Source: Anaeromyxobacteraceae bacterium (lineage in GTDB: Bacteria; Myxococcota; Myxococcia; Myxococcales; Anaeromyxobacteraceae). Taken from it: a stretch of DNA of 64,000 nucleotides. Below the pieces are notes generated by a model. The model saw nothing but the letters and a program-made list of their open reading frames with translations, searched no databases and had not been told where the DNA came from. The translations under genes were made by a program, and so were the position numbers. The DNA is taken from positions 1,152,001 to 1,216,000 of the forward strand of contig JASGHJ010000002.1 of the NCBI GenBank assembly GCA_047602405.1, written 5' to 3'. Of the stretch, positions 23,099 to 61,711 are shown in pieces. Numbering within the stretch: position 1 is the first letter of the stretch; the number at the start of each line of letters is the position of its first letter.

Positions 23099-23262
23099 TT
23101 CACGGGGTGCTCGGCGCACCCCGCCCCACGGAGCGGAGCTCCGCGGGGCCCCACCCCGGCAGCGGGTTCACGGGGTGCTCGGCGCACCCCGCCCCACGGA
23201 GCGGAGCTCCGCGGGGCCCCACCCCGGCAGCGGGTTCACGGGGTGTTCGGCGCCCCCGCCCC
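23099..23262. repeat. 68-bp tandem REP-like palindromic repeat (2 identical units plus a partial)
   Basis: Units start at 23099, 23167 and 23235; each has hairpins CGGGGTGC/GCACCCCG and CCCCACGGAGC/GCTCCGCGGGG; lies between convergent genes. Confidence 0.9.
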
Positions 23263-54344: not shown

Positions 54345-54545
54345 ATGGCGACCGGCACCGTGAAGTGGTTCAACGACGCGAAGGGCTACGGCTTCATCTC
54401 CCAGGAGGGTGGCGAGGACGTGTTCGTCCACCACACCGCCATCCAGATGGACGGCTTCCGCACGCTCAAGGAGGGCGAGCGGGTCGAGTTCGAGGTCACC
54501 CAGGGCCCGAAGGGGCTCCAGGCGGCCAACGTCCGCAAGCCGTAG
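54345..54545 (+). CDS. Cold-shock protein (CspA family)
   Basis: [31 protein letters not shown]. Confidence 0.97.
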
Positions 54546-54563
54546 CGGCAGGCGTCGATGACG

Positions 54564-54594
54564 GCGGCCCCGGGAGACCGGGGCCGCTTCGTTT
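54564..54594 (+). terminator. Intrinsic terminator of the csp gene
   Basis: GCGGCCCCGG-GAGA-CCGGGGCCGC followed by TTCGTTT. Confidence 0.8.
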
Positions 54595-54652
54595 CAGGAG
54601 CACGTTCGTTTCAGGAGCACGTGACGCGGTCCCACGAGAGAGGAGCGGCGGC

Positions 54653-55771
54653 CTGAGCACGTCCCCCACCGCCGCACCCCGGAAGCTGTGGCTCGACTGG
54701 CAGCGCGGCCTCGCCGTGCTGTTCATGATCCAGTGGCACGTCCTCGACTGGTGGCGCGCGCCGGGCTCGGAGCAGGGCGCCTGGCTCCCCACGTTCGAGG
54801 CGCTCCGCTACGTCGGCGGCTTCGCCGCGCCCGGCTTCATGTACATGGCCGGCCTCTCCCAGGCGCTCGCCGACGCCGCCCTCGAGCGCAAGGGCGTCGC
54901 GCCCGCCGAGCGCCGCCGCCGCGCGCTCGGCCGTGCGCTGTGGGTGCTCGGGGTCTCCTACGGCATCCGGTTCGTCCTGTTCGTGCTCTCCTGGTGGAAG
55001 GACGGCGCGTTCGACGAGCTCTTCAAGGTCGACGTCCTCGACGTCATCGCCGTGGGCCTCGCCGCCTCGGCGGTGCTCTCGGTCGGCCGCGGCCGCCTCG
55101 CCGGCCCGCTCCTCGCCGCGGCCGGCGCCGCCGTGGTGGTCTTCACCACCCCGCTCGTCGCCGGGGCGCTCTCCCACCTCGACGCCGCCGGCGGCCCCTG
55201 GCGTGCGCCGAACAAGCTCGTCGACGTCCTGCTCGCGTTCGCGTGGGGGAAGCCCCCGCGCTCGATCTTCTGCTCCTTCAACTGGATCGCCTTCGTCCTC
55301 GCCGGCGCCGCCGTCGGGCCGCTCGCCCGCGGCCCGCGCCGCCCGCTCGCGTGGCTCGCGCTCGCCGCGGCCGCCTACGGCCTGGGCTCCTGGTCGAACC
55401 AGTGGCCGCCCGTCTACGCGTTCCAGAACTTCTGGCGCGCGTCGCCCTCCTGGTTCCTCATGCGCCTCGGCTACGCGCTCGCGATCTCCGGCGCGCTCCA
55501 GCTCCTCCCCGACCTCCTCGACCGCCCGACCCGCTGGCTCACGCTCCTCGGGCGCCAGTCGCTCGTCGCCTACGTCGCCTCGGTCCAGCTCACCTACGGC
55601 GCGGTCGCGAACGTCGTGAAGCGATCGCTCTCGTTCCCGGCGACGCTCGCCGGCGTCGTGGCGATGACGGCGCTCACCTGGGCGATCTGCATGGGCTGGG
55701 AGCGCCTGCAGGCGTGGCGGAAGGGCAGGCCGCGCCCGTCCGCGCCGCCGTCCGCCGCGACCGCGGCGTGA
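54653..55771 (+). CDS. DUF1624 / HGSNAT-like membrane acyltransferase
   Basis: LDWQRGLAVLFMIQWH, AAPGF, VDVLDVIA, LGRQSLVAYV; start uncertain (CTG at 54653 after GAGGAG). Confidence 0.8.
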   Translation: MSTSPTAAPRKLWLDWQRGLAVLFMIQWHVLDWWRAPGSEQGAWLPTFEALRYVGGFAAPGFMYMAGLSQALADAALERKGVAPAERRRRALGRALWVLGVSYGIRFVLFVLSWWKDGAFDELFKVDVLDVIAVGLAASAVLSVGRGRLAGPLLAAAGAAVVVFTTPLVAGALSHLDAAGGPWRAPNKLVDVLLAFAWGKPPRSIFCSFNWIAFVLAGAAVGPLARGPRRPLAWLALAAAAYGLGSWSNQWPPVYAFQNFWRASPSWFLMRLGYALAISGALQLLPDLLDRPTRWLTLLGRQSLVAYVASVQLTYGAVANVVKRSLSFPATLAGVVAMTALTWAICMGWERLQAWRKGRPRPSAPPSAATAA

Positions 55772-55792
55772 TCACCGAACGGGTTCCGAGGA

Positions 55793-56037
55793 CGGCCGGC
55801 TCGCCGGGCCTCTCCGCACCGCTTGGCCTTGGGCAAAGGCCCGCCGCGTCGGGGATCCTGGGGGCGGAGGAGAGCCGCTGGTGACCCGCGGCGCGTCCAC
55901 GCATGCCAGGCGAGCGACCGTGGCCGTGAGGGATCGGGTTCAGCGGTTCGCCTGGCATGCTCCGCGCAGATCGCGGCGCCGTCTTTGGGCGGGCCTGCCG
56001 AAAGCCGGCGGTGCGGAGAGGCCCGGCGATCCGGCCG
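55793..56037 (+). ncRNA. Structured non-coding element, copy A (putative ncRNA or REPIN/MITE-like)
   Basis: Self-complementary ends; shares identical 58-, 35- and 12-nt blocks with inverted copy B; stems covary between copies. Confidence 0.55.
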
Positions 56038-56166
56038 CCTGCGATCGAGGCCGAACGGCGAAGGGCCGTTTCGGCGAGAGGGACGGGACTGGACCGGACG
56101 GACCGGACCCGCTCGTCTCGCGAGCTCCGCGAGTACAGCTCGCCTCACCCCATCTCCACGCCACGA

Positions 56167-56436
56167 GGACGCATCGCGGGGTCTCTCCGCACCGCCGGCT
56201 TTCGGCAGGCCCGCCCAGAATCGCAGCCGCGATCTGCACCAAGCGTGCAAGCCGAGGCGGCCAGCACCGCATCGCCTTCGTCGCCGCCCCGCGGCCATCC
56301 GCGACGCCCCTTCCGCCTCGGCTGGCACGCGTGGTGGTGCCGCGGCCCTCCCATCCGAGGCACCGCCCCCAGGATCCCCGACGCGGCGGGCCTTTGCCCA
56401 AGGCCAAGCGGTGCGGAGAGACCCCGCGAGGCGTCC
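56167..56436 (-). ncRNA. Structured non-coding element, copy B (inverted relative to A)
   Basis: 56363-56420 is the reverse complement of 55810-55867; 56183-56217 is the reverse complement of 55986-56020. Confidence 0.55.
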
Positions 56437-56529
56437 GCACGGACCCGCCACGAGACGCAAGACGGAAGACGCACGGAAGACGCAAGACGGACCCGCCGCA
56501 AGAAGCCGGCCCGTCGGCACCGCCACCCG

Positions 56530-58419
56530 CTACGGTCCCGACGCCGCCGGCTCGACCACCGGGGCCGGCGCGGGCGCCGCCACGAACGCGAGCGGCTCCG
56601 CGAGCGCCGCGATGAGCCCTTCGTCGCCGATGACCCCGTGCTGGGCCATGTGGAGCAGGATCTCCCCGACGCGCTGCTCGAGGTACGGCGTCGGCGCGCC
56701 CTGGGCGCGCACGGCGTCGGCGCGGACCGGGTTCGGGATCACCGCCGCGAGGAACGCCGCCTCCTTCACGGTGAGCGCGCGGGCGTCCTTCCCGAACCAG
56801 TGCCGCGCCGCCGGGCCGATGCCGAACACGCCCGGGCCCCACTCGGCGAGGTTCAGGTAGATCTCGAGGATCCGCGCCTTCGGCAGCGTGGCCTCGAGGG
56901 CGATCGCGCCGAGCGCCTCCCGGACCTTCCGCGCGAGGACCTTGTCGCGCGTGAGCCAGAGGTTCTTCGCGACCTGCTGGGTGATGGTGGAGCCGCCGCG
57001 CACGACCCGGCCCTGCTCGAGGCCGGCCTGGAGCGCGTTCGTGAGCTCGTCGAAGTCGAAGCCGGCGTGGCCGAAGAAGCCGGCGTCCTCGCTCGTCGTG
57101 ACCGCGCGGACGACGTGCTCGGGCAGCTCCGCGATGGGGACGTAGTCCGGGTTCTCCGGGCCGATCGTGAACGGCGCGCCGCCGTCCGGCGCGTACCGGA
57201 ACGGTGCCTTCAGCGCGACCGGCGGGGCCTTCCGCGCCGCGGCCCGCATGCGGGCGAGGTCGAGCCCCGCCTCCACGCGCCAGGTGCTTGGCTCCCGGAG
57301 CGCGCCCGAGAGCGCGAGCTCGGCGTCGAGGTCGCCGGGCGGGCGGGGCGCCTCGTCCGGCGGGCCGAGGCCGGGCGGCAGCGAGGCGGCGAACGCGGCG
57401 AACGCGACGTGGCGCGCGTCGAGCGCGAGCTCGAAGGGGAGGGCGCCTTCGAGCCGGACCTGCCCGGACAGCGCCGCCGCGAGCGCCGACCCGAGGGCGA
57501 GCTGCCCGCCGCGCCAGGAGAGCGTGCGGCTCGCGCGGTCCCAGGCGAGCTCGCCGGACGCGGCGAGGCGGAAGGGGCCGACCGGCGCGGGGTCGATCCG
57601 CGCCGCCTGCACGACGAGCCCGTCGACGCCCGCCGTCACGCTCCCGCTCGCGCGCGAGAGGTCGCGCGGGGCCGAGGCGTCGAGCACGATGGCGGCGGCG
57701 CCCGCGCGGACGTCGGCCGGGAGGTGGGCGCGCAGCGCCTCGCCGAGCGCGCCGGCGCGGAGCCCCTCCGCCCGGAGCGCGACGCGGAGCTCCCCGGCGG
57801 GCGCGCCGCCCGGGAGGCGGACCACGAGGGCGATCCGCCCCGCGTCCGGCAGGCGCGCCTCGGCCCGCACGAGGTCGGGCTCCGGCCAGGCGTCGAGGTC
57901 GAAGGGCCCGAGGTCGGCCGCGGCGCCGCCGAGCGGCACCGCGACGACGAGCCCGCGCACGTGCACGCGCGGCCAGGCGCGAGGCCGCGGGGCGGCCCCG
58001 GGCCGCGAGGGCGAGGCGGCGCGGCGGTCCGCGAGGGCGCGCAGCGCGGCGGGTCGGGTGGCGTCCACCCGGACGCCGTGCAGGCGCAGGGACGCGATCT
58101 CGAGGCGCCCGGCGAGGAGCGCGAGCGGGGCGGCGCGCAGGCGGAGCCGCTCGACCGTGACCGCCGGCGCCTCCGGGGTCCCGCCGAGCGCGAGCGGACC
58201 GGCGACGACGCGGAACAGCGGGTCGACCGCGACCGGCCCCAGCGCGACCTCGCCGACCCGGGCCCGGAGCGCGCGCTCGGCGCGGTCGCGCAGCGCCTCG
58301 CGCACGCCCGGCAGCCACGCTGCAACCTGCAGCGCGGCGTACACCCCGGCGAGCACCGCGAGCGCGAGGAGCGCCCTCCGGAGGCGCGCGGCGCGGGGTT
58401 TCGGGGGGCGGATCGCCAT
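56530..58419 (-). CDS. Monofunctional peptidoglycan transglycosylase (GT51) with long N-terminal extension
   Basis: SEDAGFFGHAGFD, RGGSTITQQVAKNL, RKVRE, KARILEIYLN, GIGPAA. Confidence 0.9.
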   Translation of the reverse strand: MAIRPPKPRAARLRRALLALAVLAGVYAALQVAAWLPGVREALRDRAERALRARVGEVALGPVAVDPLFRVVAGPLALGGTPEAPAVTVERLRLRAAPLALLAGRLEIASLRLHGVRVDATRPAALRALADRRAASPSRPGAAPRPRAWPRVHVRGLVVAVPLGGAAADLGPFDLDAWPEPDLVRAEARLPDAGRIALVVRLPGGAPAGELRVALRAEGLRAGALGEALRAHLPADVRAGAAAIVLDASAPRDLSRASGSVTAGVDGLVVQAARIDPAPVGPFRLAASGELAWDRASRTLSWRGGQLALGSALAAALSGQVRLEGALPFELALDARHVAFAAFAASLPPGLGPPDEAPRPPGDLDAELALSGALREPSTWRVEAGLDLARMRAAARKAPPVALKAPFRYAPDGGAPFTIGPENPDYVPIAELPEHVVRAVTTSEDAGFFGHAGFDFDELTNALQAGLEQGRVVRGGSTITQQVAKNLWLTRDKVLARKVREALGAIALEATLPKARILEIYLNLAEWGPGVFGIGPAARHWFGKDARALTVKEAAFLAAVIPNPVRADAVRAQGAPTPYLEQRVGEILLHMAQHGVIGDEGLIAALAEPLAFVAAPAPAPVVEPAASGP

Positions 58420-59669: not shown

Positions 59670-59780
59670 CCGGTCCCCCCCCCCCGCCGCTCGCGCACCG
59701 GCCGTGCGGCCCGCACCGCGGGTCGCCGGATCGCGCGCCGTCACCCCGCCGTGACACGGCGCGACTAGGATGCGCGGCAT

Positions 59781-61711
59781 GGTGCGTCGTGGAAGCTGCA
59801 CCGATCCAGCCGGTGAGAGTCCGGTCCGGGTAATCGCCGGAGAGCCCGGAAGCAGGCACCAGCTTGTCCGGGAGACCGGGCATGCCGAGCGGTGCGTCGA
59901 AAGCCTCACGTACGGAGGAAGCGAAGCGGCGGGCCGCAACAAGGTGAACGCTTCAGCCTCGACAGATCCTCAGCCGAAAGGTGTTCGGGAGCGCCGAGCC
60001 GGTCATGCCACGGCGAAGGCGATGCACAGCGTCCTTGGTCCGGAACGGACGCTGGGGCTCCCCGGGGTAGGGGCGGCGGCACGTCGCGAAGGATCGGTGT
60101 GGAACACGAGAGACCCTCGCCGGCAGCCCGCGTCGGGCAGAGACCGAGCGCATAAGACGGGAGTCGAAAGCGCGAGGAGCCGGAAGGGAGTCCGAGGGGC
60201 CCGTAGTACCGGTGAGGCGCGGGATAACCGCGCGGAGGGAAGGGGCCCTGCTTTGGTCGCGTCGGCACTGGGGGTAAGCGCGAGGGCATGGCCGTGAGGC
60301 CCAACACCCCCATCGACAAAGTGCGAGAACTCCAGCGCCGGCTTTACGTGGCCGCCAAGCGGAGCAGCACGCGGCGCTTTCACGCATTGTACGACCGGAT
60401 CTGCAGGGGTGACGTCCTGCGGGAAGCGTGGAAGCGGGTGCGCAGCAACGGAGGCGCGGCAGGGGTGGACGGCGAGTCCATCCGGGCCATCGAGGAGAGC
60501 GGAGTCGAGGCGTTCCTCGAAGGGATCCAGGCCGATCTCCTGGCAGGCGAATACCGCCCCCTCCCGGTGAGGCGGCGGTACATCCCGAAGGCAGACGGAA
60601 AGCAGCGGCCGCTCGGGATCCCGACGGTGCGGGATCGCGTGGCGCAGATGGCTGCGAAGTTGGTGCTCGAGCCGATCTTCGAGGCCGACTTCCTGTCGTC
60701 GAGCTACGGGTTCCGGCCGAAGCGGAGCGCGACGCAGGCGCTGGAGGCCATCCGCGAGGCTGGCAACCAGGGTCACAACTTCGTGCTCGACGCCGACATC
60801 AAGGCGTACTTCGACAGCATCGACCAGCAGAAGCTGATGGCGATGGTGGCGGAGCGGATCTCGGACCGCAGGGTGCTGAAGCTCCTGCGGAAGTGGCTGG
60901 AGGCCGGGGTGATGGAGGAGGGCACGGTGAGAAACCCCGTGGCGGGAACGCCACAGGGTGGAGTGATCTCGCCGCTGCTCGCCAACGTCTACCTGCACGA
61001 GCTCGACCGGATCTGGGCGCAGAGGTGCAAGCACCTCGGCGTCCTGGTGCGGTACGCCGACGACTTCGTCGTGATGTGCGGGACGGAGTCGAAGGTGAAC
61101 GAGGCGAGGCGGCGCGTCGAGCTCATCATGGCGCGCCTCGGCCTGACGCTGCACCCGGAGAAGACGCGGATCGTCGATCTGAGGCGAGGAAAGGAAGGCT
61201 TCACCTTCCTCGGGTGCGTGAACCGGAAGCGGCGCAGCATCCAGCGGCGCCCCGACCGGCACTACATGCACCGCTGGCCCTCACCGAAGGCGATGACCCG
61301 CGTCCGCGAGCGCGTCCACGAGCTGACGGACGTGCGCAGGAGCGGGGCGAAGGACGTGAAGGAGGTCATCGCGTCCGTGAACCCCGTCATCCGGGGCTGG
61401 GCCAACTACTTCCGGACCGGAACAGCGGATTGGGAGTTCAACCGCGTCGACTGGTACGTGCACGAACGGATCACGCGCTGGCTCCATCGGCGCGGTGGTC
61501 AGCGGACTCGCTATCAGTACGAGGCTTGGCCCTTCGAACGTCTCTTCGAGCTTGGCCTGCACCGCTGCATGGGCCGCGTCCGCTACCCCGCGCAAGCTGC
61601 CGCGCGAAGACCATCGTTAAGCCGTGTGCGGGAAACCCGCACGCACGGTTTGAAAGGAGGCCCTGGAACCAGGCTGGCCTAACGGCCGGTACTGCGCCAG
61701 GATCGACCAAT
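59781..61711 (+). mobile_element. Group II intron (full length) inserted at the mgsA start codon
   Basis: 5' GTGCG at 59782; domain V AAGCCGTGTGCGGGAAACCCGCACGCACGGTTT at 61619-61651; domain VI ending ...CGACCAAT; internal RT ORF. Confidence 0.92.
60288..61682 (+). CDS. ltrA: Group II intron reverse transcriptase/maturase (no endonuclease domain)
   Basis: [67 protein letters not shown]. Confidence 0.97.

Follow-up and report, generated by a model that had tools for sequence, protein, structure and literature searches.

The paired hairpins analysed here form one inserted copy of a multi-copy mobile repeat family, a conclusion about which there is little doubt. The pair lies in the window, i.e. 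the complete 64,000-nucleotide stretch of Anaeromyxobacteraceae DNA under study. What stays constant across the family is a short upper stem, the two arms of which together spell GGC-(N)-GC with the spacing of a sigma54 promoter. The wider reading, which we regard as about evenly balanced, is that this is a gene-less inserted repeat likely delivered in trans by an IS4-family transposase, each hairpin of which likely assembles a sigma54-type promoter on the folded strand.

The hairpin pair and its family

The two inverted copies, A and B, lie between convergent genes, with the coordinates and arrangement given in the original prediction, in a host genome with a GC content of 74%. The features of the site (window coordinates) are:

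54659..55771, + strand: left host gene (3′ part), an acyltransferase/HGSNAT-like membrane protein (Pfam PF01757, PF07786), outside the element
55772..56529, no strand: whole inserted block between two convergent stop codons (from the comparison with sister genome G010 and from read contigs)
55793..56037, + strand: hairpin copy A, short apex type (fold, profile search)
55832..55845, + strand: lower core of copy A, GGCAAAGGCCCGCC, with its partner strand at 55988-55999
55846..55885, + strand: internal loop of copy A, the large G-rich side of an asymmetric loop, containing a variable segment of ~17 nt
55891..55908, + strand: 5′ arm of the conserved module in copy A, complement TGGCATG-N7-GCGC, GG intact, spacing 3 nt in excess
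55953..55971, + strand: 3′ arm of the module in copy A, TGGCATG-N4-GCGC, followed by an unpaired AGAT
56038..56166, no strand: spacer without genes, including the purine-rich 3′ tails of A and B
56167..56436, − strand: hairpin copy B, long apex type (fold, profile search)
56232..56250, − strand: 3′ arm of the module in copy B, TTGCACG-N4-GTGC, with an unpaired AGAT next to it, GG broken, spacing correct
56323..56340, − strand: 5′ arm of the module in copy B, complement TGGCACG-N7-GTGC
56453..56490, + strand: short stuttered repeats outside copy B
56530..58419, − strand: right host gene, a transglycosylase (Pfam PF00912), outside the element

A profile search of the window's own genome found 20 full copies and one partial copy, and reading of the loci added one half copy and two collapsed remnants. 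The family occupies 14 loci in this genome (seven facing pairs, two pairs with a collapsed partner and five singles); paired copies always face each other, and deleted and collapsed copies are common. The loci lay between converging genes in 10 of 14 cases according to a crude gene caller, and in all 14 when stop codons were inspected by eye; the background obtained with the crude caller was 77/186 for a small REP and 947/4029 for all adjacent ORFs. At other family sites, the spacer between paired hairpins holds foreign ORFs or REPs, and stutters like those at 56453..56490 lie beside several other copies. Strand-biased stutters of 6–17-nt units were also seen to replace or flank hairpin elements at the same gaps (L094 and many other intergenic gaps). 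At another locus (L036, 1533-2399, − strand), an ORF of lower GC content (61%) and up to 288 codons, with no Pfam or NCBIfam match, lies between two A-type hairpins, and in G012 (L391, 2300-3600) a facing pair 1.6 kb apart surrounds small foreign-looking ORFs, one of them cysteine-rich.

The sister genome G010 has 10 nt in place of window positions 55768-56542, and there the stop codons of the two genes overlap. Contigs from sequencing runs X1, X3 and X8 (three studies) join across the same site, and the two flanking genes are contiguous in 8 of 35 other genomes of the genus. Since the block is missing from G010, from these eight further genomes and from the run contigs, the window copy is an insertion; a search for empty sites in relatives, which had been proposed as a check, thus found them. 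Nine of the 14 loci were tested against G010: all eight with adjacent flanks were empty, while the ninth has its flanks on different contigs. One of the empty sites keeps a short remnant, so some absences are losses. G010 itself carries three damaged copies, one of which shares the gene gap of the C1 copy of the window's genome, with the opposite facing. Together with the 20 full copies and the TIR/TSD-bounded versions found in relatives (see below), the empty orthologous sites bear out the suggestion that this is a non-autonomous mobile element. The orientation of the elements with respect to replication showed no bias (4/11 B-type ends on the exposed strand, as determined from skew in the own genome), and other sequencing reads contained family pieces in four runs and no usable element ends.

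A search with a model of the core found the family in G020, in which the lower stem is diverged and the upper stem kept. A pattern derived from the upper stem matched 11 of 363 genomes of the order (24 matches in G051, eight in G021 and four in G020), the reversed control giving one match, and BLAST with a G051 hairpin added five genomes. The final structure model, for which a limited number of candidates was scored in each genome, had matches in at least 19 of 92 genomes of the bacterial family, with up to 35 copies each among the matches listed; of 151 genomes from the whole phylum it matched at least three, and those listed all belong to this bacterial family. The copies resolved in other genomes lie in convergent gaps in 13 of 33 cases only, and many are antisense to the upstream gene. 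The lower core GGCAAAGGCCCGCC is near-invariant within the own genome only and diverged in G020; the matches to the lower-core pattern (7 loci in genome_contigs, 11 in metagenome_contigs and 0 in viral_contigs) were all due to chance, none being supported by the profile, and this pattern is specific to the own lineage. Nothing real was found when the G051 element was compared with plasmids, and the G051 TIR gave 49 single matches and no pairs in viral contigs. Isolated motif matches, one each in G045, G062, G095 and five genomes from other families, were not counted towards the family. One G020 locus (L395, G020:C16:1040546-1041660) bears three hairpin copies in head-to-tail arrangement, 440–535 nt apart.

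Folding and the strand that carries the signal

Both hairpins folded far better than shuffled sequences (z = −8.9 for A and −10.0 for B; 0/200 shuffles equal). The pairing-preserving, two-sided changes between A and B on which the original prediction relied are present in both copies, and covariation held up in the larger alignments that it had called for: it was detected in 22 of 59 predicted pairs when the 20 own-genome copies were compared, and in 16 of 23 pairs with 23 copies from 10 genomes, a figure that none of 500 shuffles reached and that the kinship of the sequences inflates. The proposal of an invariant core was not supported. The 58-, 12- and 35-nt blocks are indeed identical between A and B, but the 58- and 35-nt blocks vary across the family, the other 18 own copies showing 3–21 differing columns relative to copy A in the 58-nt block and 1–9 in the 35-nt block. 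A and B agree in these blocks because hairpin modules have been swapped between copies, and since the family copies are mosaic, the 58- and 35-nt blocks are no family invariants.

A guide-like role had been suggested for the variable segments. These, however, matched their own flanks no better than the flanks of other copies (6.95 v 6.72, 4.85 v 4.82 and 7.35 v 7.49 nt), and the suggestion was not supported; the match between variable loops and a target or flank by which a guide or bridge RNA would be recognised was not found. Two further interactions considered by eye, one pairing the left variable segment with the apex as a pseudoknot and the other forming a helix over the large loop, were rejected since sequence changes break both. 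In Rfam, no family reached the gathering threshold for window positions 54500-57500, where three weak matches lie outside or edge the hairpins, or for three loci from G051, G021 and G020; this agrees with the view that the element is not a known Rfam family. One of the weak matches, to sX12, stems from the terminator hairpin behind the gene at 54346-54594, which we take to be of the cold-shock type.

The element had been thought to be under selection as a folded single-stranded RNA or DNA, with G-U pairs favouring one strand. A folded single strand is supported. The evidence for a bias towards the given strand is mixed. With RNA energies this strand is more stable in 20/20 own copies, and the consensus pairs contain 62 G-T cells on it versus 14 A-C; with DNA energies, however, only 14/20 copies prefer it. 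The most conserved box points the other way. Its mismatches on the given strand are C-T (27), C-A (18) and G-T (1), so the opposite strand is favoured there (G-A and G-T on the complement, on which the GG is non-template), and the conserved signal favours DNA over RNA.

Alternatively, the functional form might be an RNA. Transcripts of the given strand, arising by read-through or independently, would then fold into a rod acting as a 6S-like decoy or template for sigma54-RNA polymerase, or would set the stability of the 3′-ends of convergent mRNAs. 6S RNA, too, is rod-shaped, and its asymmetric central loop could pass for a promoter; here apex, bubble and closing stem are laid out similarly, the RNA energies and the excess of G-U over A-C cells fit, and the paired own copies are sense to the adjacent gene. 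Unlike 6S RNA, the element is multi-copy and mobile, keeps promoter-like letters and has no Rfam match. Moreover, the box mismatches would be C-U and C-A in an RNA of the given strand, the would-be non-template arm would have no GG, several of the copies lie beyond terminator-like hairpins, and many copies of other genomes lie antisense to the gene upstream. We judge a functional RNA unlikely.

IS4-family ends and candidate movers

Versions of the element with defined ends were found in relatives. In G051, the facing pair is contained in an element of 773–783 bp with a 15-bp TIR and, in five distinct intact elements, a 10–11-bp TSD; the copies are ~98% alike, and TAG lies directly outside 17 of 26 TIRs. 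In G046, a Tn5/IS50-like IS has a TIR that agrees with that of the G051 shell in 14 of 18 positions; its 11-bp TSD lies within TAG-N7-CTA. In G048, a TIR of an IS4 subgroup was present at all 14 loci examined (31 matches in all), with a 10-bp TSD in two of four closed elements, one of these with a mismatch; nearly the same TIR bounds an autonomous IS4 in G051 (two copies) and in the window's genome (five copies; NF033592). A TSD of about 10 bp is listed as an IS4-family signature in Table 1 of PMC2266710. The element contains no transposase; IS4 elements with similar TIRs exist in G000, G051 and G046, and no IS bearing the shell's own TIR was found in G051 (81% complete) or G048 (91% complete). 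Four loci (L216, L237, L243 and L244) hold elements of the IS4 subgroup with 10–12-bp target duplications centred on CTAG or TTAG, i.e. stop codons. The TAG-containing targets of the IS4 family would explain the position of the element between converging stop codons.

In the own genome, no TSD was found at the 13 loci tested, and a TIR-like relic was present at one of the 14 loci only, the window copy and 12 others being without an IS4-type TIR; 25 loci checked in other genomes had no IS4-type ends by the pattern used. The shells may have decayed in this genome; alternatively, they were acquired later and the hairpins have a second way of moving. Since the G051 and G048 shells belong to different IS4 subgroups, they may be later captures. 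The G051 and G048 versions share with the non-autonomous elements of the IS4 family (MITEs and mobile insertion cassettes, as described in the part of PMC2266710 available) their TIRs, a 10–11-bp TSD, the absence of a transposase and TAG-containing targets. They differ in the interior, which is a conserved structured pair found in two IS4 shells and also shell-less, and the window copy has neither TIR nor TSD.

Other mobile elements use the hairpins as a landing pad, namely IS110 and group II introns. In G051, an IS110-family element sits at one fixed site of the 3′ arm in about seven elements (L178 and L184, 1612-3010 in element orientation). In eight hairpin elements of that genome (L250-L254 and L257-L259), one and the same group II intron end is inserted two bases within the TIR; this intron seems to home on a MITE end. 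The window contains a group II intron too (59770-61711; RT/maturase ORF at 60288-61682, PF00078 and PF08388), and its RT is present in the genome in seven full copies and one internally deleted copy. None of the Y1, IS110 and intron genes of the own genome carries the element.

A REPIN-type (RAYT) mover, as had been considered originally, was not supported: none of the six Y1 genes of the genome is flanked by the element, and the bounded versions have IS4-family ends. The more general possibility is an oversized REPIN- or BIME-like element moved as single-stranded DNA by an HUH (Y1) transposase, the conserved mismatch and bulges being the recognition site of the enzyme and the likeness to sigma54 sites arising by chance. 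The genome does have, besides its six Y1 genes, about 180 small REPs, TIRs are absent in most lineages, and the inverted pairs, the gene-end location and the conserved bulges are REP-like in the terms of PMC3733652. According to the same source, in the part available, REPINs, BIMEs and TIRtrons share with the element the character of intergenic palindromic repeats, in inverted pairs near gene ends and with a patchy distribution, but their units measure 20–40 nt compared with the 250–300 nt seen here; the element has no associated Y1 gene that could be found, and the GTAG-type tag of REPINs occurs at the stem foot in few copies only. The bounded copies, moreover, carry a TIR and TSD of the DDE type, and the conserved letters coincide, at a fixed spacing, with the positions that sigma54 contacts; motifs comparable to it occur about once per 100 kb in the own genome. 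Movement by a Y1 enzyme is accordingly improbable.

Two separate repeat families were noted in passing. A REP-like palindrome of ~55 nt with GTAG and a GAA-capped stem occurs at L044 (943-1000) and about 180 other G000 sites, with a longer relative upstream of a RAYT-like gene (G000:C2:1325321-1326052). At window positions 23099-23260, two identical 68-nt tandem units and a partial third directly follow a stop codon and belong to another intergenic family.

The two-arm module and its likeness to single-strand promoters

The module has the consensus GCRM-N7-YRYGCCR on the 5′ arm and YGTCAYR-N4-NTGCA on the 3′ arm, with exact TTGCA in several genomes. For comparison, the nifH promoter reads CTGGCACG-N4-TTGCA, and sigma54 contacts the GG and GC on the non-template strand, the bases after GC being melted in the closed complex (PMC9770992, as far as its text was available). 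The second G is a G in 134 of 135 E. coli sigma54 sites (own count from Tables 1-2 of PMC4591121).

The motif was tallied in 34 distinct versions from 20 genomes, with G102 and G019 parsed by eye; four copies from G021 were excluded. On the 5′ arm, the complement carries GG in 34/34 versions, with a spacer of 7, 9 or 10 nt and never 4 (an excess of 3–6 nt). The 3′ arm has the 4-nt spacer in 33/34, with GG absent in 30/34 (GT 25, GA 4, TG 1; GG 4), and the base after its GC is A in 33/34 and bulged in the 23 copies parsed. The pair involving the second G is open in 20 of 23 sequences, while the neighbouring pairs are kept in 23/23 and 22/23, and the GC pairs are kept as well. When read across the two arms, GG and GC are 10 nt apart in 32 of 34 versions (31 by script), compared with 3 of 34 on a single arm. 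The tally is partly circular: the motif itself led to G021 and G051, and a model that includes it supplied 13 versions. Obtained without the motif pattern were the 20 own copies, one copy from G010, two from G020 and the genomes found by BLAST. On the 3′ arm, GA replaces GC in the G009 copy and in the four G021 copies excluded from the tally.

Since the 5′ arm is right in its letters and the 3′ arm in its spacing, the putative promoter is expected to be whole mainly in folded single-stranded DNA. Judging from these letters, the module is somewhat more probably than otherwise a folded site of the sigma54 type. Copy A of the window is one of three versions with GG-N10-GC on the 3′ arm already in double-stranded DNA; its 3′ arm keeps the GG, as 4/20 own copies do, and has C in place of T before GC. 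E. coli sigma54 is recorded as binding one TGTCA site and several with C before GC (PMC4591121). Given this TGTCA binding and the three single-arm versions, the site would not be absolutely off in double-stranded DNA.

In the genome there are a single RpoN box and 31 motifs of the activator type; no activator site was seen with the module, and most copies have no gene behind them. According to the available text of PMC4005640, the sigma54 holoenzyme requires an ATP-driven activator even on pre-melted DNA, and binds early-melted DNA without activator with sub-nanomolar Kd. A GT-for-GG change is also present in hairpins of another kind, those of four cassettes of two convergent four-helix-bundle-like genes each (L387-L390), where it occurs in 8/8 gene-facing arms in the own genome. 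The family model does not recognise these hairpins (best E 0.017), so the short motif alone is common to both.

If the element were a plain MITE, with hairpins as passive filler and a functionless motif, its covariation would stem from template switching and inter-arm gene conversion. The mosaic nature of the copies, the frequency of deleted and collapsed ones and the landing of IS110 and group II introns in the element all suit such a view. Arm-to-arm correction, however, would erase mismatches, and one mismatch, the 3–6-nt excess and a 2–4-nt bulge persist at ~50% alignment identity; the module also persists while TIRs and lower stems are replaced. A functionless MITE thus appears quite improbable. 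On another view, the 3′ arm holds an ordinary double-stranded sigma54 site that is weak or silent, or the module is a trap that keeps inactive holoenzyme at gene ends as a roadblock between converging genes. This would be consistent with the spacing of that arm, with the TGTCA site bound in E. coli (PMC4591121), with the activator-independent binding to early-melted DNA (PMC4005640) and with the convergent setting of the own loci (10/14 or 14/14), but is very unlikely, since it leaves the GG of the other arm (34/34, with its off-size spacer) unexplained and only 13 of the 33 resolved copies in other genomes are convergent.

The closest parallels to a folded sigma54-type site are the single-stranded DNA promoters Frpo and ssi of F and ColIb-P9 (PMC9849209 and bioRxiv 2023.02.15.528439, in the parts available), with which the element shares a long non-coding hairpin whose fold would build the promoter boxes. 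The single-strand promoters described in these texts use sigma70 boxes (−35/−10), whereas the letters of the element match sigma54 (−24/−12; GGC..GC with 10-nt spacing). Frpo and ssi, on which RNA polymerase initiates only when the single strand is folded, lie in the conjugative leading region, upstream of early genes; the element lies between host genes, with no transfer genes listed in its 2.5-kb flanks and no transfer origin seen. A further difference is that its copies are many, chromosomal and arranged in facing pairs, mostly without a gene behind. In the literature searched (mostly openly accessible, main texts), neither the hairpin family nor a sigma54 single-strand promoter was found. 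Since the window copy has neither the ends of an IS4 MITE nor the boxes of Frpo, it was filed under neither; the element is best read as working like a MITE that carries a pair of Frpo-like hairpins with sigma54 letters.

According to this preferred reading, the complementary strand would fold so that the intact GG box of one arm comes into register with the correctly spaced GC box of the other, looping out the 3–6 extra bases and keeping the nucleotide that follows GC out of pairing, a state also seen in the closed complex of sigma54. The start site would be placed in the large internal loop: in copy A, sigma54 geometry would put it at ~55978-55987, opposite the large loop side at 55846..55885. 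Host sigma54-RNA polymerase would bind the fold; given activation, it would transcribe the 3′ arm in the direction of the spacer. The facing arrangement would provide each strand with one working copy. The likeliest, if speculative, use would be to prime second-strand synthesis on DNA that enters, or becomes exposed, in single-stranded form, giving a cut-and-paste transposase double-stranded ends; we hold such a priming role to be somewhat unlikely. Frpo, from the work of Masai and Arai, reportedly also primes DNA synthesis. The own-genome copies would be older ones with decayed ends. Taken further, and rather unlikely as a whole, the element may be a selfish, gene-less one with a sigma54-specific single-strand promoter on each strand; the exposed strand would recruit host RNA polymerase without a classical enhancer and prime conversion to the double-stranded form, and IS4-family transposons would have captured the pair at least twice as an aid to establishment from incoming single-stranded DNA.

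What is new here is the sigma54 reading linked to a mobile hairpin family, together with the IS4 shells. The 34 versions from 20 genomes form a natural mutagenesis series, in which one arm is right in sequence and the other in spacing, and they give the exact oligonucleotides with which to ask if folded DNA can be loaded with sigma54 and if a hairpin makes the activator dispensable. Many long-hairpin repeats at the ends of bacterial genes are unexplained; for one of them there is now a candidate function, and such a repeat has been seen within IS4-family ends, which points to movement by IS4-family enzymes.
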